Shown here one piece after another: positions 2,820-54,000 of a stretch of DNA of 64,000 nt. Positions within the stretch are counted from its first letter, which is position 1; every line of letters begins with the position of its first letter. A program made the translations under genes and the position numbers. The notes below the pieces were generated by a model. It saw nothing but the letters and a program-made list of their open reading frames with translations, had not been told where the DNA came from and searched no databases. This DNA comes from a virus: the IMG/VR virus record IMGVR_UViG_3300021963_000049, positions 52,689-116,688 of that record; one strand, given 5' to 3'.

Positions 2820-3092
2820 TTATACTAAATCTAATTCTGCTTCTTTAACTTCTTCAGATTCTAAAACCACTTCTTCAAATGGAACAAATCTATCAGCAGA
2901 ATAGTATTCATATGGAAATGAGTCAGGACTTAGTTGTACTTCTTTAAGTAAAAAGCCTAATTTTCCAGGAGTAAGTGCCATATTTACAAACTCTGTAACT
3001 GTATACACTTCACCTTCTTTTATCCATTCATGTGCTGGAATTCTAGAAGGTTTGTTTTTAGCATCAATGCATATGACTTTCATTAATCTCAA
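2820..3092 (-). CDS. hypothetical phage protein (small beta-barrel-like)
   Basis: MKVICID...IKEGEVYTV...ADRFVP pattern common in phage small proteins. Confidence 0.7.
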   Translation of the reverse strand: MRLMKVICIDAKNKPSRIPAHEWIKEGEVYTVTEFVNMALTPGKLGFLLKEVQLSPDSFPYEYYSADRFVPFEEVVLESEEVKEAELDLV

Positions 3093-3318
3093 TTTCAGAT
3101 ATTATACCAAGAGAGTCTAGAATAGTGCTCATTTCATATACTTCATCAAAGGCACCAGATTTTACATGGCATTTACCATTATGATGTGCTATAGTAGCAC
3201 ATTGTTCAGCTTGTATTGGATCATGGCCACATTTCCTAATTAAACAAGCTATTATATAATGGAATGAATTCTCATCATCATTATACATTATTAGTTTATA
3301 TGGTTTATTCTCTTCCAT
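3064..3318 (-). CDS. clpS: ClpS-like ATP-dependent Clp protease adaptor
   Basis: YKLIMYNDDENSF..IIACL...QAEQCATIAHHNGKCHVKSG matches the ClpS signature (LxNDD...AxxxxxxxHxxG). Confidence 0.85.
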   Translation of the reverse strand: MEENKPYKLIMYNDDENSFHYIIACLIRKCGHDPIQAEQCATIAHHNGKCHVKSGAFDEVYEMSTILDSLGIISEIEINESHMH

Positions 3319-3338
3319 ACTCCAATATATAAAAAATT

Positions 3339-4445
3339 CTACATATTATCCAGATTTATATTATAGTCTTTCCAGATAATTTTACTTTGATCAAAGTCTT
3401 CAAGAGCTTCTTTTACCCATTTTTCATCTACTGTACCTACATAACATAGTATATGCACAATAGCTTTGTCATCTGGATTTAACCGGAGCAACCGACCAAT
3501 TCTCTGAGAACTTTTTCTCTCATTACCATAAGCATGCATGATGATACCTTGTTTAAGATTAGGAATATTAACACCCTCATTTAACTGCAATACAGCAGAG
3601 AGTTTATTAATTTCTCCATTCTTAAACATCAACAGATTCTCTTCAGAATTAGTATTACCACTATGGTAGCTATGGTTACACAATTTATCAGCCTGAGCCT
3701 GTGTATTTGCAAACAGAATACACTTTCCTTCTATGCTATTGAACAATATGCGGGCATATTTCTCTTTACTAGGATATTCCATAAGAGCTTTCATTCTCAT
3801 TATCCTAATAATATGCACACCAGATGTTGCTACATCTAGCCTTCTTGTCCAATAACTATAGTTTAAATACTCAGAAGTCTTAAACTTTTTCTTTTGCATT
3901 TCTACTTCATAGTCTTTAACTTCACTAAGCTGTAGCATATGCACAATAATCTGATAGTCATTTAGTATTCCATTTTCTATAGCATCATCAGCTTTAAATG
4001 TATATACTATTGGACAGAATTCATTTACCAGCTTACCTTTCTCAGAGTGCTTATATTTTGGCGGAGTACCAGTCAATCCTAGTATCACACCTTTGTAATT
4101 ATATAAAAAACCTCTGTGGGAGTCAAGCAAGCTGTGCACCTCATCCAGATATATAATATCATAATCATTAGGATTATGCTTATTAAGACTTAGATAAGTT
4201 GTAAAAGTAATTCTACCAAGTAAGTGATGCTTATCAAATTTCTCCGCATCATCTTTCCAAGATTGATAAATTGCTTTCTTTGGAGCAACAACCAGGCATC
4301 TCATTAGAGCTGTGCTATTTTTCTCCAGGTGAGTAAGACCAACTAAAGTTTTACCCACACCGGTTCCAAGAACTACACTGCATCTCTTGTGTCCTTCAGT
4401 TGCTTCAATAGCTTTTAACTGTATTTCATCTTTAGTCATAATCAA
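3339..4445 (-). CDS. superfamily II (DExH) helicase
   Basis: Walker A GTGVGKT, DEVH, TGT motif III, LNEGVNIP, QRIGRLLR motif VI. Confidence 0.9.
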   Translation of the reverse strand: MIMTKDEIQLKAIEATEGHKRCSVVLGTGVGKTLVGLTHLEKNSTALMRCLVVAPKKAIYQSWKDDAEKFDKHHLLGRITFTTYLSLNKHNPNDYDIIYLDEVHSLLDSHRGFLYNYKGVILGLTGTPPKYKHSEKGKLVNEFCPIVYTFKADDAIENGILNDYQIIVHMLQLSEVKDYEVEMQKKKFKTSEYLNYSYWTRRLDVATSGVHIIRIMRMKALMEYPSKEKYARILFNSIEGKCILFANTQAQADKLCNHSYHSGNTNSEENLLMFKNGEINKLSAVLQLNEGVNIPNLKQGIIMHAYGNERKSSQRIGRLLRLNPDDKAIVHILCYVGTVDEKWVKEALEDFDQSKIIWKDYNINLDNM

Positions 4446-7881: not shown

Positions 7882-8620
7882 ACCTATAAAATTTAAGTTG
7901 TTTTCTTTTTAATTCTAATATTTCTTGTGGAACATCTTCCAATTTAAAACCTAATCTGTTAGCAATAAATCCATCATTCATATGTTCAGATTGCATTTTA
8001 AGGACTACAGATTTTGGTAATTTATCCACATTCTTATACTCTTCTGGATAATCATACTTTCTATTAGCTTTAGTTTTTTCTAACCATCTTTTTTTCCATT
8101 CTTCTTGATAAGTCTCAAGATCATAACCTTTAGCAAATACTTTTATGTATTTAGCTTTTTCTTTTTTAGTAGAACCTTCAGGATAATTATACTTTAGATT
8201 TTTCTTACCAGCTGTTAGTTTATTATTCATTTTAATAGCTTTCAGTTCTTCTTCAGTAGAAACTCCATATTTAATCATAAGCTTTTTATCTTTTCTTTGC
8301 ATTGTCATTAGACCATTGCACTTTTTGCAAACATGTCTAAAACTAATAGAATCAGCAGATAAAGGCTTACCCTTAACAATAGTTCCCTTTTTAGTAACTT
8401 TTTTATAAAAGTATTCCCCAGTTAAAGGGAATACTTCTTTGCAGTTACTACAGGCTTTCTCAGTTTTCTTTGGTACTAAAACTACTCTACTATTTGCATA
8501 TGCCCGAGAGCAGGTTATACACATAGATCTCAAACCATATTTACCTCTTTTTTGAACATGAAAATTATTTCTTGTAGCAGGTAAATTAGTATTACACTTG
8601 GTACAAACTTTATAATTCAT
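7844..8620 (-). CDS. basic protein with two CxxC...CxxC zinc fingers of the type found on homing endonucleases
   Basis: CTKC..CITC and CSNC..CKKC; similar to the N-terminus of 39824..40243; no clear catalytic HNH motif. Confidence 0.65.
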   Translation of the reverse strand: MNYKVCTKCNTNLPATRNNFHVQKRGKYGLRSMCITCSRAYANSRVVLVPKKTEKACSNCKEVFPLTGEYFYKKVTKKGTIVKGKPLSADSISFRHVCKKCNGLMTMQRKDKKLMIKYGVSTEEELKAIKMNNKLTAGKKNLKYNYPEGSTKKEKAKYIKVFAKGYDLETYQEEWKKRWLEKTKANRKYDYPEEYKNVDKLPKSVVLKMQSEHMNDGFIANRLGFKLEDVPQEILELKRKQLKFYRYVKSKEAKNTNN

Positions 8621-34911: not shown

Positions 34912-36531
34912 ATGGCAACTCCAGTTTTAAACAATGGTATCTTTCTACGGGATACAGCCTATGCGGCAACTTCACACGTAGATTCTTACCACTTGGTTAA
35001 CATGTTGAAGGATGCAGAACCAATGGACTTAGGTCCAGTAGACCTTTGGGCAATGGCTCAGAAGGTGGAAATGCCTCTTTACCAAATGTCTAGCTTTGGT
35101 GGTAAAAATGTAATTATGGTTGACAATGCTCGCGGTGAGTATAAGTGGCAGACTCCAGTATCTGTGGATCTTCCTTATATCATTGAGGATATTGAACCAG
35201 ATAATAGCTTCAAAGGTGTAGATGGTACTACTTTCCGCATCAAACTTAGCAGAAGAGAATTTGGACATGGGGATATTATTACCTATGACAAATACAATGG
35301 GGCTGAGATGTACATTGTACCAACTGAAGATATTTTACCAGTTAATGATGGATTTATCTATACTGTTCAGTTAGTAGACAATGACAACAACCGTTTCTTA
35401 GATAACAAGTATTTATCAAATGGAACTAAGGTATTTAGAAAAGGTTCTGCTAGAGGTGAGTATGGTGAGAGATTCTCTGACATCCAAACAAGAACTGGTT
35501 TCCGTGAATTCTACAACTTTGTAGGTGGAGCTGAAGCACATGTTCATTACTCTATTTCTTCTAGAGCTGATTTGATGATCAAAGGTGGTATGAATGCAGA
35601 TGGTACAGTTCCTGTAACTGAGATCTGGAGAAACTTTGGTGCAACTAATGATCCTTCTATCACTTCATTAGAAGACATGGTTAAGGTAATGGGTAAAGAC
35701 AAAGTAAAGAAAGCATTTGATAATGGAGACTTATCAAGAACTTTCTTGACTACTATGGAAGCTGCTCACTTAACTAAAATTGCTACTGATATTGAGACTT
35801 ACTTAATGTGGGGACAAGGAGGTAGAGTTAAGCAAGATGGTCCAGATGATCTAAGATTATCAGTAGGTCTTTGGAAGCAGTTGGATAACTCTTTCAAAAG
35901 AGTATACAACAAGAATAACTTTACACTTGATTTGTTCCGTGGAGAAATCTACAACTTCTTCAATGGTAAGGTTGAGTTCCAAGGTCCAGATCCAAAGAGA
36001 TCTTTGATTGTACAAACTGGTATGGGTGGAATGAGAATGGTAAATGAAGCAATTAGGAGAGAAGCAGTATCTTCTGGTCTTTTGATTCAAGCTGCAGATA
36101 TCGGTGCTATCACTGGTAAAGGTATGGACTTGAACTTTGGATTTGCTTATACTTCATATGTAATTCCATTCTTGGCAAATGTTAAGTTTGTTCTTAACCC
36201 AGCATTTGACAATGTTCATACTAATGATATTGAGAACCCAATCATAGATGGTTTCCCATTATCTTCTTACTCATTCATTATCTTTGATATCACAGATAAT
36301 ACTAATGATAACATCTTCTTATTAAAGTTATCTTGGGATAACCAACTTAAGTGGTGGTATCAGAATGGTACAATGGACTATATGGGCCGTACTCAAGGGT
36401 TCCAGTCTTCTGGCCAATTCAATGGTTACCGTGTTATGATGTCTCAAACAATGCCAGCTATCTGGGTTAAGGATCCAACTAAAGTCCTTAAGATTGTTAT
36501 GAGAAACCCAATCACTGGTGGATCATTCTAA
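34912..36531 (+). CDS. major capsid protein
   Basis: 539 aa, highly biased codon use, position after portal/scaffold, followed by a terminator (36544-36580). Confidence 0.85.
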   Translation: MATPVLNNGIFLRDTAYAATSHVDSYHLVNMLKDAEPMDLGPVDLWAMAQKVEMPLYQMSSFGGKNVIMVDNARGEYKWQTPVSVDLPYIIEDIEPDNSFKGVDGTTFRIKLSRREFGHGDIITYDKYNGAEMYIVPTEDILPVNDGFIYTVQLVDNDNNRFLDNKYLSNGTKVFRKGSARGEYGERFSDIQTRTGFREFYNFVGGAEAHVHYSISSRADLMIKGGMNADGTVPVTEIWRNFGATNDPSITSLEDMVKVMGKDKVKKAFDNGDLSRTFLTTMEAAHLTKIATDIETYLMWGQGGRVKQDGPDDLRLSVGLWKQLDNSFKRVYNKNNFTLDLFRGEIYNFFNGKVEFQGPDPKRSLIVQTGMGGMRMVNEAIRREAVSSGLLIQAADIGAITGKGMDLNFGFAYTSYVIPFLANVKFVLNPAFDNVHTNDIENPIIDGFPLSSYSFIIFDITDNTNDNIFLLKLSWDNQLKWWYQNGTMDYMGRTQGFQSSGQFNGYRVMMSQTMPAIWVKDPTKVLKIVMRNPITGGSF

Positions 36532-37648: not shown

Positions 37649-38083
37649 ATGAAAAAGTATGCTGCGGGCGGTAAAACAGATCCTGCCAAGAAAAAAGCAA
37701 GATTAGAAAAAAGAGCTAATAAAGTAATGGGAAGAGCCCAAAGAACTTATGCTGAGTCATTAGGTGCAATTGAAGATGCAAAAAAGTCTGGTACAAAGGC
37801 TGATTATGCTGGAGCTGAACAGTTGCAAAATAGATCGCTAAGACAAGAAGCAAAAGCTAAAAGACTTAAAGCTAAAGCAACTAGTATGAAAACTGGTGGT
37901 ATGGTTAATTCTAATGCTAAAGTTTCTGCGCTTAAATCTGCTGGCTCTAAAGGAGTTAAGTCAGGTGTTAATCCAAAAGCTTCTGCATCTAAAGTTGCTA
38001 AAGGTAGATCAGGGGGAACTTCTAAAGCTCCTAAAACTGCTACACCTAAAGCTATGTATGGAATGTCAATGAGAAGAAAATAA
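37649..38083 (+). CDS. highly basic K/A-rich protein (histone H1-like composition)
   Basis: YAAGG and MKTGG motifs. Confidence 0.7.
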   Translation: MKKYAAGGKTDPAKKKARLEKRANKVMGRAQRTYAESLGAIEDAKKSGTKADYAGAEQLQNRSLRQEAKAKRLKAKATSMKTGGMVNSNAKVSALKSAGSKGVKSGVNPKASASKVAKGRSGGTSKAPKTATPKAMYGMSMRRK

Positions 38084-38421
38084 TGCCAAAAGATTCTTGT
38101 TATCATAGTGTCAAATCCAGATATGCAGTCTTTCCTTCAGCAAGGGCTTCTCAAGCTATTGCCAAATGTAGAAAAAAATCTGGCAAGGTAAGAAAGACTG
38201 AGAAAGGTACAGAGCTTAAAAGATGGCAAGCAGAAAAGTGGCAAGATACTAAATCAGGGAAACCTTGTGGGGCCGGTGGAAAGAATGAATACTGCCGCCC
38301 CACTAAAAGGGTTTCTAGTAAAACACCAAAAACCAAAAGTGAAATTACTCCTTCTAAACTTAGAGCTAAAAAGGCTGAAAAGTCTAGAGTAGGTATGGGA
38401 AGAAGAGTTAAAAAAGTATAA
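38083..38421 (+). CDS. highly basic small protein
   Basis: FPSARASQAIAKCRK, LKRWQAEKW.D.K.GKPCG, YCRP.KRVS.KTPKT. Confidence 0.75.
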   Translation: MPKDSCYHSVKSRYAVFPSARASQAIAKCRKKSGKVRKTEKGTELKRWQAEKWQDTKSGKPCGAGGKNEYCRPTKRVSSKTPKTKSEITPSKLRAKKAEKSRVGMGRRVKKV

Positions 38422-38436
38422 TTAAAATTTATTATC

Positions 38437-38823
38437 ATGAAGAAGGTTGCAAAAGTTGCTAAAAAATCTTTAAAAAAAGCACAAGATGGTACTGTGCAAG
38501 GACCATTTACAGAAAAAACAGCAAAGTACTTAGATGAAAAATATCCTGGAACATCAATGAAATATCCTGGACCATATAATGCAGAAACCATAAAGGATAT
38601 GAAAGATAGAGTTGCTCAAACATATGGTGCAACATCATGGGGTAGACCATCTGATCTTGAAAAAAGTTTAAGAAAAGATGAAGAAAAATACATAAGAAGT
38701 AATTCAGAAACAATGGCTGATGATTATAGTATGTACCAAAAAGGTGGTAAAGTATTAAATGGAAAGTCATTTAGAAGAGGGTCTTTTACAAGTGGTTTAA
38801 GAACAAGCAGAAAACATAAATAG
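38437..38823 (+). CDS. basic protein with AQDG/YQKGG motifs
   Basis: 128 aa ORF. Confidence 0.65.
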   Translation: MKKVAKVAKKSLKKAQDGTVQGPFTEKTAKYLDEKYPGTSMKYPGPYNAETIKDMKDRVAQTYGATSWGRPSDLEKSLRKDEEKYIRSNSETMADDYSMYQKGGKVLNGKSFRRGSFTSGLRTSRKHK

Positions 38824-38825
38824 TT

Positions 38826-39083
38826 ATGGCAATTAAAAAAACAACAACTGCAAAAAAATCAACTCCTGCTAAGAAATCAAGTTCTAAATCTTCTTCAGTA
38901 GGTATCTCTATTATGGGCGGTAACAAAGCTGAGATGAGAAAGTGGGAAGTTGAATCTGCTATGTCTACATTAAAAAGAGCAGCAGAGATTCAGAAAGATG
39001 CTAAGCTTATGTCAGATGTAAAGAAAATGGCACAAGAGCAAGTAAGAATGTTTAGTAATCTTGCTAATGGCAAAATGAAATAA
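38826..39083 (+). CDS. basic small protein
   Basis: K/S-rich N-terminus; KWEVE.AM.TL.RA.EI.KD. Confidence 0.7.
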   Translation: MAIKKTTTAKKSTPAKKSSSKSSSVGISIMGGNKAEMRKWEVESAMSTLKRAAEIQKDAKLMSDVKKMAQEQVRMFSNLANGKMK

Positions 39084-39085
39084 TC

Positions 39086-39562
39086 ATGGTAAAGTCACCG
39101 GCTTGGCAAAAATGTATTGAATGTAACCGTGAGGGTGACAAAAATTTATTTGCTAAAGGTGGAAATGGTAGATGCAACAGATGTAGTAAAATAGAATGGG
39201 AAAAGAATAATCCTGATAAAGTAAGAGCTCAAAGACTAAGAGGAAATGCAGGTAAGAGAGCAAAAACAATGGTATGGCCTGAACCAGATTTTGATACAAG
39301 TTGGATATATGATAAAATTAAAAATGGATATTGTGAAGTAACAGGAATTAAATTTGATTTAGAAACAGAAGTTAGATCATCTGCTCATGCAAAAAATCCT
39401 TGGGTACCTTCAATAGATAGAATAGATAGTTCTAAGCCTTATTTAAAAGACAATGTTCAAATAGTAGTTTTTATGTACAATGTTTGCAAGTCAGAATTTA
39501 CACATGATGATGTGATTAAGTTTTGTAATGCAATTAAAATAAAAGAAGATGGCAACTCATAA
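39086..39562 (+). CDS. free-standing homing endonuclease (HNH-like, SIDRID family)
   Basis: CEVTGI.F...PSIDRIDSSKPY..DNVQ.V...YN..K. Confidence 0.8.
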   Translation: MVKSPAWQKCIECNREGDKNLFAKGGNGRCNRCSKIEWEKNNPDKVRAQRLRGNAGKRAKTMVWPEPDFDTSWIYDKIKNGYCEVTGIKFDLETEVRSSAHAKNPWVPSIDRIDSSKPYLKDNVQIVVFMYNVCKSEFTHDDVIKFCNAIKIKEDGNS

Positions 39563-39836
39563 AAGTCCAAGCTGGCAAAGAAAAGAAGGGAAGAATCCAG
39601 AAGGAGGGCTTAATGCTAAAGGTGTTGCTAGTTATAGAAGAGCTAATCCAGGAAGTAAACTTAAGACAGCTGTAACTACTAAACCATCAAAACTTGATCC
39701 GGATAGTAAAGCTGCAAAAAGAAGAAAAAGCTTTTGTGCTAGGATGTCAGGTCACAAAAAAAAGAATACATCTGCTAAAACAGCAAATGATCCAAATAGT
39801 AGAATAAATAAAGCATTACGCAAATGGAATTGCTAA
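39549..39836 (+). CDS. basic small phage protein (WQRKEGKNP.GGLNAKG...RRKSFCARM...KWNC family)
   Basis: Recognisable conserved basic phage protein. Confidence 0.8.
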   Translation: MATHKSPSWQRKEGKNPEGGLNAKGVASYRRANPGSKLKTAVTTKPSKLDPDSKAAKRRKSFCARMSGHKKKNTSAKTANDPNSRINKALRKWNC

Positions 39837-40243
39837 ATAAAACATGTACAAAATGTAAAGTAGATAAACCATTATCTGCTGAATATTTTCCATTGCATAA
39901 TAAAACTAAATCTGGGTTTGATAGTTGGTGTAGAAACTGTAGATCAACATACAGAAGTGAAACTAGAAGAGGTAACTACAGAGATATGATATCTGATAAA
40001 CTTTTAAAGGATATTGTTGAATCTGTTACAGAGTGTGTAATATGTGGTTCTGAAGAAAAATTAGTTGTAGATCATTGTCATACTACTAATCAAATAAGAG
40101 GAATGCTTTGCAATCATTGTAATAGAGGTTTAGGTCATTTTAGAGATAATCCTGAATTATTAGAATTTGCAAGGATTTATTTATTATCTTATACTAAAGA
40201 TACTTCTGAAGCTGAAGAATATTTAGAAAAGTGGAATTGTTAA
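39824..40243 (+). CDS. endonuclease VII-like homing endonuclease
   Basis: CVICG...LVVDHCH.T..IRGMLCNHCNRGLG.F.D. Confidence 0.85.
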   Translation: MELLNKTCTKCKVDKPLSAEYFPLHNKTKSGFDSWCRNCRSTYRSETRRGNYRDMISDKLLKDIVESVTECVICGSEEKLVVDHCHTTNQIRGMLCNHCNRGLGHFRDNPELLEFARIYLLSYTKDTSEAEEYLEKWNC

Positions 40244-40253
40244 TTTATATATC

Positions 40254-40793
40254 ATGAAAAAGATGGCCTGTGCTCAATGTGGCGGAGCAAAAATGAAGAA
40301 AGGTGGTACATCACCTAATAAGAAAATGCAAAAAGGAGGTTCTATAGGTATTGTAGGCATGCCTAAGTATGGTAACAATCCTATGACTGATGAAGGTAGA
40401 ATGCTTCAAAAAGGTGGCTCTTTTGCTCCTAACCGTGCAGTACAGTCTTCTTGTAAGAATGGTAGGGTTAGAGATGAGAAAGGAAGATGTGTTATGGCTA
40501 GAAAAATGGCCAAAGGAGGATCTTCAGATTTTGGTATGTTATCAGTAAAAGCTGGAGTAGACAAAAATCCTAATCCAACACAGGCAGATAGAATAGCCGG
40601 TGCTAAAATGCAAAAAGGTGGTAACTGGATTCAAGGTGCAATTAAAAAACCTGGAGCTTTAAAAGCATCTCTTGGAGTTAAGAAAGGTGAAAAAATACCT
40701 AAAGGTAAACTTGCTGCTGCTGCAAAGAAAGGTGGTAAACTTGGACAAAGAGCTAGACTTGCTATGACTCTTGGTAAAATGAGAAAAAAGTAA
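40254..40793 (+). CDS. highly basic protein with repeated MxKGG motifs
   Basis: MKKGG, MQKGG, LQKGG, MAKGG, MQKGG; C-terminal WIQGAIKKPGAL...GQRARLA.TL. Confidence 0.75.
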   Translation: MKKMACAQCGGAKMKKGGTSPNKKMQKGGSIGIVGMPKYGNNPMTDEGRMLQKGGSFAPNRAVQSSCKNGRVRDEKGRCVMARKMAKGGSSDFGMLSVKAGVDKNPNPTQADRIAGAKMQKGGNWIQGAIKKPGALKASLGVKKGEKIPKGKLAAAAKKGGKLGQRARLAMTLGKMRKK

Positions 40794-40799
40794 TAAGAC

Positions 40800-41498
40800 A
40801 TGACTAATAGTGCAATTACAATAAAGATGAAACAAAGGCTGAACAAATTGGACAGCCAAGACTTTGACAACATTGAATGTTGGCAAGTTGTTGAGTCTTT
40901 TAATAAAGCTCAAGTAGAGTGGTCAAGAAGGCAATTGCATGGTATTAATGTTGTCAAGGAAGGTGATGAGCAATCTACCAGAAGAAAAGATGACATGCAA
41001 GTTTTATTAACTACCGGAGATTTACCAGTAGCTCCAAAAGATGTTTACTACTTTGGAGATATACCAGCAGATTATTTACAATGGAAAAGAGTAGATGTTT
41101 TTGCAAACAAAGAATGCTGTGATAAGAGAAGAATGACAGTATACTTAGCTGAAGAAGGTAATGTTAATTTATTACTTAGAGATAAAGCTAAGCAACCTAA
41201 TTTTGAATGGGCAGAAACATTTGCAACTCTAATAAATAATAGAGTTCATATCTATACTAATAATGAGTTTGCAATACAAAGTGCAGACTTAATATACTAT
41301 AGACAACCTAGAAAAATACAAATTCTTGGTTGTGTTGATCCATATACAGGAGTTCAATCTACTGCAGAAGTACAAAGTGAATTCAAAGATGATATAATAG
41401 AATTAATAATTGATGAGGCTGTAGCAATACTAGCAGGAGATATTGAGTCAACAAACCAATATGCTAGAAACTCAGAAACAGCTGAAAGAAATAACTAA
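40800..41498 (+). CDS. head-tail ring/adaptor protein
   Basis: FNKAQ...L.YYRQP...EF.D.I.E.IIDEAV pattern of crAss-like ring proteins. Confidence 0.65.
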   Translation: MTNSAITIKMKQRLNKLDSQDFDNIECWQVVESFNKAQVEWSRRQLHGINVVKEGDEQSTRRKDDMQVLLTTGDLPVAPKDVYYFGDIPADYLQWKRVDVFANKECCDKRRMTVYLAEEGNVNLLLRDKAKQPNFEWAETFATLINNRVHIYTNNEFAIQSADLIYYRQPRKIQILGCVDPYTGVQSTAEVQSEFKDDIIELIIDEAVAILAGDIESTNQYARNSETAERNN

Positions 41499-41503
41499 AA
41501 ATA

Positions 41504-41992
41504 ATGGAATCAAAACCTAGAATGTTAAAAAGACCTGAAGCAGTTGTAACACAACCTAAGTCTGAACCATCAAAAGCTCAACCTACTCCTGACACAGGTG
41601 TTGGAGGAAGCTCATTAGATACTATGACTGCAGCTTGTGTATCTGAACTTATGAATGCAAGAACAAGTTTTCATAAGCTTCATTTAAAAGTAAAAGGAGA
41701 TGGATCATATGCAGCACATAAAGCTCTTAATGAATTATATGATGCATTACCAGATCATGCAGATTCTCTTATAGAGGGTTATCAAGGTGCAGCAGAAAAG
41801 TTACTTTCTTATACTGAAGTAGCACCAAGAACTCTTGATACAGTATCTGATGCAGTAAGTTACTTAAGAGATTTAACTGCTATGGTAACTAAATTACAAG
41901 GTAAGATGCCTTACTCAGAAATAGTAAATTCACTTGATACAGTTAAAGATACATTTAACTCTGCTAAGTATAAATTACTTTTCTTAAAATAA
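41504..41992 (+). CDS. ferritin/Dps-like protein
   Basis: HKLHL...SYAAHKALNELYD.....D.LIE.YQG...KYKL four-helix signature. Confidence 0.8.
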   Translation: MESKPRMLKRPEAVVTQPKSEPSKAQPTPDTGVGGSSLDTMTAACVSELMNARTSFHKLHLKVKGDGSYAAHKALNELYDALPDHADSLIEGYQGAAEKLLSYTEVAPRTLDTVSDAVSYLRDLTAMVTKLQGKMPYSEIVNSLDTVKDTFNSAKYKLLFLK

Positions 41993-51081: not shown

Positions 51082-54000
51082 ATGGCAGAAAATAATTTAC
51101 AAGATACCAGTAAATTAATTACTAATACATTTGTTAAGGGTTTAAATAAAGATTCAGATCCTTCATATGTGTCTGAAGGTATGTGGACACATGCTGTAAA
51201 TGCTGTTAATAATAGTGTAGAAGGTGATGTAGGTTCATTATCTAATGAAGTTTCAAATTATTTATGTGCAACGGCAGGTGAGACTATGCCACTAAATATT
51301 GCAGAAAAATATATAATAGGAGCAATATACTTATACTCTGATAAATGGGCAATATTTACTGCAGGTCACAATGCATTAGGACAACCTGTTATGTCAGAGA
51401 TTGGACTTCTTGAAGAAGATAGATGTATATATAGACCAATAGTACAAGACATCTGTTTAAGATTTGATAAAAGATATCTTATATCCGGGGCTTCTAGAGA
51501 AAAAGAAGATTGCACCTGGCAAGTATATTGGGCTGATGGAAAAAATCCAGATAGATATTTAAATATAGGAGATCCTAAAACTTGGCCACCTAGTGATTTT
51601 TCATGGTTAGGTGGTGGTGCTTCTTCTATGAACTATTATTCAAATGGTACACAGCAAATGCTTTGGCCAGGAGTTGCATGGAATCAGGATTGTGAACTTG
51701 TAGATAATTGTAACATATGTACAGATCTTAATTCACTTGACTGTGACCAAACAAGATTAGCAAGATTAATGGAAACACCTTGTCTTAATTTAAGACTTGG
51801 TAATCAAGGTGGAACACTAGCAAATGGAACTTATTTTGCAGTTATTACATATACTATAAAAGGTCAAAAAGTAACTGATTATTTCTCACAAAGTAATAAT
51901 CAATTTATATATACTGTTAATGATCTAGAAGGATCTTTAAACTTAGAAGTTTCTGCGGACTCTGAAAACTTTGATGAGTTTGAGTTAGTAATTGTACAAA
52001 ATATAAATCAAGGTACAGTTGCAAAAAGAATGGGTGTTTACTCTACTAAGACTACTTCAATTTCTATAGATCAAATAGATCCGACAAACATTACTGTACC
52101 AATAGAACAATTACCAATTCAAACTCCTGTTTATGAGAAGTCAGATCAAATAACAGAAGTTAATGAATATTTACTTAGAGTTGGTCCTACATCTAAATTT
52201 GATTTTAATTATCAACCTCTTGCTAATTTGATTAGATCAAGATGGGCATCTGTTGAGTATCCAGCTGATTATTACATAAAAGGTGGTAATAAAACAAACT
52301 ATCTTAGAGATGAAGTTTATTGCTTTTTTATAAGATGGGTGTATGATACTGGAGACAAGTCTTCATCATATCATATCCCAGGTAGAGCACCAAGAGATTT
52401 TACTATTCCTTTAACCGGAGCTTTAGTAAGTGAAACACAATCTTTAGTAAATCCAAATACACTAACTCCAGGAGAATCAGTATTTCAAGTATATAATACT
52501 GCAAATACATTATCAAGTCCACTGATTGGTTCTAACACAGATGATGGTGGAACAGTCATAGCAACTGGAGAAATGGGCTATTGGGAATCATCAGAATCTT
52601 ATCCAGATAATAGACCTGATATATGGAACTCATCAAATTACTGCTGGACTAATGTTCCAGTAGATCCAGTAACTAGTCTTCCTATACCTAATACAAATTA
52701 TGATTTGTGTGGTCAAAAAATTAGACACCATAAGTTTCCAGAAAACTATATAAATAATAATAGTACAACTAATGTTATTCACTTTAGAAGAAATGTAAAC
52801 TCAAGTACTACAGGGCCTCAAAACTTTATTAGAATACTTGGAGTATATTTTGAGAATATAATATTACCAAAGGATAATGATGGTGAAGATATTCCGGGGA
52901 TTGTAGGCTTTGAAATATTAAGAGGTTCTAGAGAAGGTAATAAAACTATTATTGCCAAAGGAATGGTCAATAACTTAAGAAGTTATGAAATAAGAGGTGG
53001 TAGCAAAAAAGGAAGAATTGGTTTATATCCAAACTATCCATTTAATACTATCTATCCACTTAATAACCAAAGCACAAACCCAGGTCTTCATAACTTTAGT
53101 TATAATGATCCATATATAAAAAATGAAAAGACTAATGGTGATTATGTAAATCAAATAGTTCCAAAAGATGTATTTACATTTCACTCACCAGATACAATGT
53201 TTAGAACTCCTTTCTTATCTACAAGTGAGTTTAAAATATATGGTCACTTAAAAGGATATGCTGAACAACAGTTTTTGTTTCCAGACAAGCATCCAAAGTT
53301 TAAGCTTCTATCAAATCTTGCAATACTTCCTATGATTATCACTGGGGTTGCCCAAGGTATTATTTCAATGCTTGGTAAGAAAACAGTAAACCAACCTGAT
53401 ATATTAGGAGCTAGTGGTGTTTCAGATGCAGCAGGTGTTGCAGCAGCTACTTATACAACTGCAGCAACAGCATTAGGACTTCCAGTAACTGGACCATTAG
53501 CACTTTATAATACATTTGTAAATAACTATTATTCATCTGGTACAGCATTATTAGATGTAGCAGCAGAATTTATACCTTTTGTACCAACAGCAGCAGTTAC
53601 TGCAGAAAATACACTTATTACAGCATTAAATGCAAGTGCTATTGCTCAAGTAAATGCTCCAGTAATTAGAACTGGCGCAATAGAATTACCAGACTTTGCA
53701 TATTTACCCGGAGCCGTTAAAACATTAGGAGCTATAAATCAGTTAGCATTTTATTTTTCAGAAGGTGCAGAGATAGCTTTAAGAATATTATATGCAGTAG
53801 TTACATATAAGCAATATGCATTACAGAGTATGTCATATGGTTTCTATGATAATATGAATAGTAATCCGGTTTCAGAAATATTTAGATTTAAAATCCAAGA
53901 TAGTTTTTATATAAGAGATAATATTCAAGAAGTTAATAGGTATCAAACAAGCTCCGGTGTCTGGACTTCTTATATGATAAACAACTTAAAGAGATCAGAT

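Follow-up and report, generated by a model that had tools for sequence, protein, structure and literature searches.

Two putative homing endonuclease genes at opposite ends of one small phage gene, each probably carrying a substitute for the end that it took over

We analyzed a 64,000-nucleotide (nt) stretch of phage DNA (the window; positions 52,689 to 116,688 of IMG/VR record IMGVR_UViG_3300021963_000049), which makes up the 3' part (64 kb) of a genome of 116,688 bp (estimated to be 99% complete, 33% G+C). Three genes on the + strand are the subject of this report: a gene for a putative PacI-like HNH endonuclease (39086-39562, 158 amino acids, aa), a gene for a basic protein of the DUF6321 family (39549-39836, 95 aa) and a gene for an endonuclease with the EndoVII, or DHHRN, motif (39824-40243, 139 aa). 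Both nuclease genes are free-standing, and the DUF6321 gene between them is intact. We consider it highly probable that two unrelated homing-endonuclease genes each invaded one end of this DUF6321 gene, with neither intron nor intein involved, and that each brought a substitute for the end that it occupied.

The three open reading frames (ORFs) overlap in a chain, the HNH stop with the DUF6321 start and the DUF6321 stop with the EndoVII start. The nuclease ORFs either differ in frame from the DUF6321 body or terminate before it. The original prediction had pointed to an upstream ORF opening MVKSPAWQ, to TGGCAAA shared by the two heads and to the endings EKWNC* of the downstream ORF and RKWNC* of the DUF6321 ORF, and all of these were found where it had placed them. 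It had further proposed that each nuclease took over the original start or stop codon and that replacement ends restored the gene. The comparisons described below agree with both proposals.

At the upstream junction the HNH ORF opens MVKSPAWQK and the DUF6321 ORF opens MATHKSPSWQRKEG. The pattern that encodes K-S-P-[A/S]-W-Q, AARWSNCCNDSNTGGCAAA, had exactly two matches in the window, at 39092-39110 and 39561-39579, against 0.01 expected from shuffled sequences, and none of 100 shuffles reached two matches. We compared both heads with those of L015 (loci used for comparison are designated by L numbers), a contig of 113 kb from the same phage lineage, in which the HNH gene is absent. The DUF6321 gene of L015 starts MAKSPAWQRKEGK and ends LRKWNC*, which is the uninterrupted form that had been predicted beforehand for relatives free of the insert. 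From the W codon to the stop it is 91.7% identical in DNA to the window gene (22 mismatches in 264). The first 25 nt of the HNH ORF (39086-39110; M-V-K-S-P-A-W-Q-K, the start and eight codons) agree with the start of the L015 gene at 22 of 25 positions, while in the working DUF6321 head 4 of the 12 nt before TGG are identical to L015. Judged from these alignments, the head held by the HNH gene looks like the native copy and the working head looks like a diverged one.

The working head (39549-39579), presumably borne by the HNH cassette, consists of a new ATG placed 11 nt upstream of the HNH stop, extra codons, a recoded K-S-P-S and then TGGCAAA, which is common to both heads. The extra codons are T-H-K in the window and Y-K in L003-L008, where homologous substitute heads were found downstream of the HNH gene, and in the window the HNH stop (TAA, 39560-39562) sits within them. 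In a second HNH subfamily the DUF6321 restart codon is TTG, the extra codons again contain the HNH stop, and the head is A-K-P-K-T-E-A-W. Distant HNH homologs from Pseudomonas phage LUZ100 and Ralstonia phage DU_RP_I have no DUF6321-like head and start at the zinc ribbon; therefore we regard the head of the HNH ORF as captured DUF6321 sequence. The codon at which this head joins the nuclease's own zinc ribbon varies among HNH subfamilies.

At the downstream junction the DUF6321 ORF ends LRKWNC*, and the EndoVII ATG (39824-39826) lies inside AAATGGAATTGCTAA (39822-39836), as originally predicted, so that the nuclease gene overlaps the DUF6321 gene up to its stop by 13 nt. The substitute tail end comprises the codon CGC (39819-39821) and AAATGGAATTGCTAA, that is 39819-39836. 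The EndoVII ORF itself ends EKWNC*, encoded by AAGTGGAATTGTTAA (40229-40243). A degenerate pattern for K-W-N-C-stop, AARTGGAAYTGYTAA, had exactly two matches on both strands of the window, at these two tails (0.00 expected from shuffles; 0 of 100 reached two matches). The tail pair, with a spacing of 407, is among 14 short direct-repeat families in the AT-rich 1.3 kb, and thus the repeat alone is unremarkable; its position and the comparisons with relatives carry the weight.

In the EndoVII frame the second tail reads Y-L-E-K-W-N-C-stop (40220-40243, + strand), and its assignment as a native DUF6321 remnant is firm for the last 15 nt (40229-40243). These 15 nt are all identical to the tail of L102, an allele with no EndoVII gene (EndoVII-free). 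Over 40220-40243 the agreement is 21 of 24, and the likeness to nuclease-free alleles may extend over these 24 nt. The working tail agrees with L102 at 13 of 15 positions, and just upstream it has GCA, CGC where L102 has TCT, AGA. The remnant is thus nearer to nuclease-free relatives than the inserted tail is. Further, in the EndoVII-free L102 and L169 K-W-N-C-stop is followed directly by an AT-rich spacer and then by a dn179-like gene, and in the window, L015 and L016 the spacer and this gene come after the EndoVII tail (in the window, spacer 40244-40253 and dn179 40254-40793, both on the + strand). On this comparison the tail held by the EndoVII gene looks native and the working tail looks like the diverged copy.

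The codon CGC before the first tail copy had been described as rare in this DNA, and it is: CGC makes up 6 and AGA 361 of the 417 Arg codons in the 28 + strand ORFs of at least 150 aa. The tail Arg codon is CGC or CGT in EndoVII-linked alleles of the lineage (window, L015, L016); among EndoVII-free relatives it is AGA in L102, L163, L169, L004 and L100 and CGT in L096. An A before TGG, which creates an ATG, was present in 48 of 55 distinct EndoVII-linked genes vs 44 of 85 EndoVII-free genes (p = 1e-5).

Longer remnants were observed in other contigs, which keep 8-38 residues of the displaced DUF6321 end. Among the best 80 of 245 EndoVII loci, 11 have a second, partial DUF6321 match after the nuclease. 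The remnant continues the nuclease frame for 18-24 aa in L083, L091 and L094 and for 8 aa in L078. In L025, L029 and L073 (approximately 28 aa) and in L019 it is out of frame, and the L019 fragment lies further off, approximately 220 nt beyond the nuclease. In L083, L025, L029 and L073 the subtype of the working tail differs from that of the remnant (type A remnant and type B working tail in L083 and others), and therefore the working tail of these loci came from elsewhere. Mismatches between the window gene and EndoVII-free relatives, when binned, did not increase clearly toward the 3' end, because the gene is too short and the relatives are too distant.

We propose the following course of events. 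The upstream cassette would consist of the HNH ORF from codon 10 on and a new DUF6321 head, and would have entered the native gene behind its first 25 nt; the HNH nuclease would thereby be translated from the host gene's own start. The downstream cassette would consist of a substitute DUF6321 tail and the EndoVII ORF, with the substitute K-W codons supplying the nuclease ATG; this ORF would read into the leftover native tail and use the native stop, spacer and downstream gene. Each enzyme probably recognizes the DNA that is conserved at its respective end in nuclease-free DUF6321 genes, and would cut such alleles near its insertion point. Repair of the break from an occupied genome would then copy in the nuclease together with the substitute end (homing), which the enzyme would leave uncut. 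DUF6321 would stay whole, and the native scrap would remain with the nuclease. Translation of the three genes may be coupled, because stop and start codons overlap at both junctions.

The substitute ends could also have a simpler origin. With the same insertion history, they may be diverged donor flank (a co-conversion tract) that was never selected, and protection may come from the insertion splitting the site. We judge this version rather unlikely, and nevertheless a live alternative, as neutral divergence of a foreign donor segment would explain the substitute ends as well as resistance to cutting does. The tails are consistent with it: type B substitute tails exist naturally in the EndoVII-free genes of L003, L163 and L169, CGN codons are present in EndoVII-free alleles, and the fungal mitochondrial cases discussed below were interpreted as horizontally acquired C-termini (PMC3630166; here and below, statements on cited articles refer to the available part of their text). 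The heads argue against it. Their divergence is sharply local, with 8 of 12 nt differing beside a gene that is 91.7% identical, and the few codons before TGG are altered in both HNH subfamilies, but not alike (K-S-P-S-W vs K-T-E-A-W). In addition, Ser stands directly before W in 9 of 27 distinct HNH-linked genes vs 0 of 124 HNH-free genes (Fisher's test, p = 5e-8).

We then consider how the two nuclease families are distributed, where the association with DUF6321 ends was exclusive. In IMG/VR, 11 of 12 close HNH loci have DUF6321 directly downstream, and the 12th stops at the match and has no flank; in the second HNH subfamily (166 aa) the same was seen in 22 of 22 loci examined of 33. Of the 182 HNH representatives 120 were listed; of these, 68 begin M-[APG]-[KR]-[ST]-[PA] and 86 begin M-[APG]-[KR]. 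On the other side, DUF6321 lies directly upstream in 77 of the best 80 EndoVII loci. The three loci that lack this match are two short of flank and L068. In 63 of the 77 the nuclease ATG is located within the K/A-W codons with the 13-nt overlap seen in the window. Of the 1132 EndoVII representatives 120 were listed; 110 of these begin [MV]-E-[LVM]-L, as W-N/K-C-stop does when read in the shifted frame, and 29 have a W-x-C end. Since both families are large (182 HNH and 1132 EndoVII database clusters, the latter at E 1e-20 or better) and apparently dedicated to DUF6321, the arrangement is common and not a one-off.

Both nuclease genes vary in presence among close relatives. L015 and L016 have no HNH gene, and L003 and L004 carry the HNH gene without the EndoVII gene. 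Neither nuclease was adjacent to DUF6321 in any of 80 further loci (L095-L174), many of which carry an uninterrupted DUF6321 gene of the L015 form. Both nucleases around one DUF6321 gene were seen only in the window and in L007 (the same contig as L208) among the loci compared; the EndoVII gene of L007 is 51% identical to that of the window and has no W-x-C end. We also built a tree of 60 distinct EndoVII proteins from their first 118 residues, with the tail excluded. It needs at least 8 changes for W-x-C ends, 4 for long tails and 4 for out-of-frame remnants, and the starred branches force at least 3 changes for each of the three tail states. Such repeated changes fit a remnant that is supplied by each new recipient and then decays. 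No Rfam match (E up to 1) was obtained in 38000-41000, and no intron family was found there.

These data bear on two further explanations. The fragments held by the nucleases might be the remains of a second, tandem DUF6321 gene largely replaced by each nuclease, and two observations suit this idea, namely that DUF6321 behaves as a shuffled module, present also as a fused part of larger proteins (L001, L095, L131, L133), and that the L019 fragment lies at some distance from its nuclease. We regard it as very improbable: a second DUF6321 match within approximately 2.5 kb was present in 0 of 80 nuclease-free loci, DUF6321 has a single copy in the 116,688-bp genome, L102 and L169 have the same spacer and next gene after their single DUF6321 gene as the window has after the EndoVII tail, and the HNH head has a start codon and sits at the start position of the single gene in L015. 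That the three genes form a fixed operon whose nucleases serve packaging or resolution, with the shared termini due to overlap constraints or chance, is scarcely credible, for although phage operons often have start and stop codons that overlap and the distant HNH homologs of LUZ100 and DU_RP_I sit between terminase subunit genes, both nuclease genes come and go among close relatives, displaced remnants reach 38 aa, some relatives have a decayed form of the captured head (MAKTPTLQK, MATAALQK and, in a further HNH relative, MAEELRRK) and both terminal patterns occur twice in 64 kb.

Several points weigh against invasion of both ends with substitute ends as we have described it. Tail capture is not universal, as 42 of the 60 distinct EndoVII proteins have no W-x-C end and 18 have one. 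The remnant in the window is short (15-24 nt), and the conserved Y-L-x-K that directly precedes it may belong to the nuclease itself. The type B tails of L003, L163 and L169 are found in genes with no EndoVII nuclease. CGN codons account for 32 of the 69 Arg codons at the tail position of EndoVII-free alleles; because CGN is common there in EndoVII-free genes of other phages, CGC is not specific for recoding, and we dropped it as evidence of this. The HNH protein has no Pfam match, and its link to PacI is one profile match with E 7.9e-4. Finally, the loci compared are a limited sample, and one listing of relatives did not include L015.

The two nucleases differ in how readily they are classified. 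The EndoVII protein matched PF02945 (Endonuclease_7) with E 3.4e-15, and its motif is complete at residues 71-100 of 139 (C71-x2-C74, D83, H84, H86, R92, C96-x2-C99, N100). The HNH protein matched phrog_3322 ('endonuclease', E 6.7e-22) and phrog_3118 ('HNH endonuclease', E 1.6e-10) of PHROG; Pfam gave nothing even at E 10, and nothing useful was obtained in NCBIfam or in a single-sequence search of PDB. A profile of 62 family members, searched against PDB, matched PacI (3ldy, profile positions 12-142, chain residues 2-119 of 142). The residues that are invariant in these 62 sequences, D111-R112-x-D114-S115, Y119, N123 and N132, lie within the PacI match. Protein language-model neighbours of the HNH protein are named 'HNH endonuclease', which we take as a lead only. 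Together, the ORF, the PHROG matches and the family profile suggest that the upstream gene encodes a PacI-like HNH (beta-beta-alpha-metal) endonuclease. A profile-profile comparison of the HNH and EndoVII families gave no relation (probability 1.2%), yet both match phrog_1035; we provisionally treat them as unrelated.

Variants of the EndoVII gene were observed in other loci. About two dozen members of the family (database proteins P0121-P0240) end -Y-I-N-C or -Y-M-N-C and not -K-W-N-C; such ends may be a decayed captured tail. In L035-L037 (approximately 2831-3405), which belong to the lineage of the window, the EndoVII gene has an extra N-terminal zinc-finger domain and starts just past the DUF6321 stop, not inside the gene, and its end is still E-K-W-N-C. 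Three EndoVII-motif genes occur within 3 kb of L025 (434-616, 2180-2401 and 3001-3423). S-SRM01 (L209, MW015081), a cultured freshwater Synechococcus cyanophage, has an EndoVII-motif gene (1186-1902, 46% identical) located 48 nt after the gene of a 610-aa protein, in which a DUF6321 module with the end R-W-N-C makes up the last 85 residues. This phage could serve as a laboratory system.

The host gene was assigned with confidence to DUF6321 (PF19846, E 5.3e-20, 72.3 bits vs the curated cut-off of 28.5, residues 14-93). Its PHROG matches correspond to the C-terminal end of several larger families, and DUF6321 was found in 530 of 50,697 phage records. All nuclease-linked loci that we saw keep the gene intact, except L034. 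There (approximately 2559-2760) DUF6321 is cut off after approximately residue 65 and the EndoVII gene follows 31 nt on, without a substitute tail, which looks like a failed or decayed insertion. Among 63 distinct nuclease-free genes the most conserved 15-nt blocks were the last 15 nt (0.89) and TGGCAACGAAAAGAAGG, which starts from the W codon (0.85). These two blocks adjoin the two insertion points. In a single nuclease-free contig, L117 (approximately 2501-2515), a TAG stop takes exactly the place of the conserved W codon in A-A-W-Q-R-K-E-G-K, next to the point at which the HNH gene inserts; this may be either a broken gene or a changed target site.

The two nucleases can be compared with characterized enzymes. 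The HNH family profile could be aligned with nearly the whole chain of PacI (3ldy, 3m7k), with the N-terminal CxxC...CxxC and the block D-R-x-D-S...Y...N...N..K-S included; the likeness is weak, and PacI is a restriction and not a homing enzyme. Cleavage by PacI is started by a tyrosine. In lactococcal phages, 'PacI-like' HNH genes form an established class (PMC12724721). Judged by its motif, the EndoVII protein resembles the F-CphI/DHHRN family in having CX2C, D-H-x-H, R, CX2C and N all present, and the F-CphI 'endonuclease clade' in having the motif in the C-terminal half; like F-CphI it is encoded by a free-standing gene of an aquatic phage beside its presumed target (PMC6083498). F-CphI acts jointly with an intron by which its own genome is protected (collaborative homing; PMC6083498). 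No intron was detected here.

The closest parallel to the gene arrangement is that of the mobile endonuclease ORFs (mORFs) of fungal mitochondria, which come with a duplicated C-terminus in atp6 of Allomyces macrogynus and in atp6, atp9, cox2 and nad3 of Glomus (PMC3630166). According to the available text, a free-standing endonuclease ORF arrives there in the 3' part of a coding gene along with an in-frame C-terminus of foreign origin that replaces the native one. The native C-terminus persists downstream and is closer to relatives than the inserted one, and the ORF may share its reading phase (PMC3630166). The same order is present in the window, with the substitute tail up to 39836, the ORF at 39824-40243 and the remnant at 40229-40243, and it is full-size in L025, L029, L073 and L083. 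As far as the mORFs are covered by that text, three things differ: in place of LAGLIDADG or GIY-YIG enzymes, HNH and EndoVII nucleases are found here, and in a phage host; the remnant here is often only the last codons and serves as the nuclease's own stop; and the same gene here also has the 5' mirror form, in which the start codon is taken and a substitute start is supplied.

Each pair of native and substitute ends offers a natural guess at a recognition site and its resistant variant. A nuclease in a phage coding sequence without intron or intein, with survival of the host function, is represented by the mobA and gene 60 cassette of T4. Split-gene insertions of this kind leave two cooperating pieces, unlike the DUF6321 locus, where a full-length gene is restored by the carried end and a short scrap stays with the nuclease. 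In T4-like phages the starts of free-standing seg and mob nuclease genes overlap the upstream ORF, by 11 bp in segF, 20 bp in segC, 23 bp in mobA and 24 bp in mobC (PMC2988022). These genes, too, are free-standing and lie beside conserved genes, and their translation is thought to be limited by coupling; they differ in being described as located between genes, and duplicated or substitute ends are not mentioned in the available part of that article (PMC2988022). Nor were duplicated or substitute phage gene ends found in the available parts of PMC10448857, PMC12724721 and PMC8351571. Our literature search, which left most subscription journals outside its range, returned no phage report of such ends or of the 5' mirror form. 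Within this search, intron-free invasion of a coding sequence by means of a substitute end was found described only for fungal mitochondria, and the phage and 5' versions appear to be new.

If two unrelated homing-endonuclease genes did invade DUF6321 as we propose, a homing endonuclease can occupy a protein-coding gene of a phage without intron, intein or split gene by bringing a spare gene end, and this would work both at the 5' end, where the start codon is taken, and at the 3' end. A practical consequence is that N-termini of nucleases and termini of host genes are chimeric, and therefore gene calling, clustering and phylogeny may be misled. It is possible, and we suggest it only tentatively, that 'terminus-swapping' homing cassettes are a general and unrecognised route into phage coding sequences, in which the host start or stop is taken, a resistant and coupled end is supplied and the scrap is kept as the outer homology arm. 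As both homology arms would lie inside the 288-nt target, such a cassette could move between unrelated aquatic phages whatever the neighbouring genes. It could also excise cleanly between the flanking repeats, and the nucleases would partly drive the unusual conservation of DUF6321 at the DNA level and the shuffling of this module across cyanophages and pelagiphages.

The locus belongs to the head module of the genome, where a homolog of the major head protein (34912-36531) is followed by small basic proteins and a homolog of a virion structural protein (40800-41498). The stretch 37649-40793 encodes a series of small and very basic proteins, namely one of 144 aa, DUF5872, one of 128 aa, one of 85 aa, DUF6321 and the 179-aa product of dn179. 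The order of the small basic proteins of the head module varies between related contigs (L001, L095, L131, L133 and L147 were compared), and in other phages small basic modules are fused in single proteins of 450-1000 aa, for example DUF5872 with DUF6321 (phrog_727). A 162-aa protein encoded within the structural module (41504-41992) matches phrog_858 ('starvation-inducible transcriptional regulator', Dps-like, E 3.3e-22). On the - strand of the window, 8498-8611 weakly matches (E 0.004, 34% over 38 aa) the N-terminal zinc ribbon of the EndoVII-motif protein, and this may be another nuclease gene.

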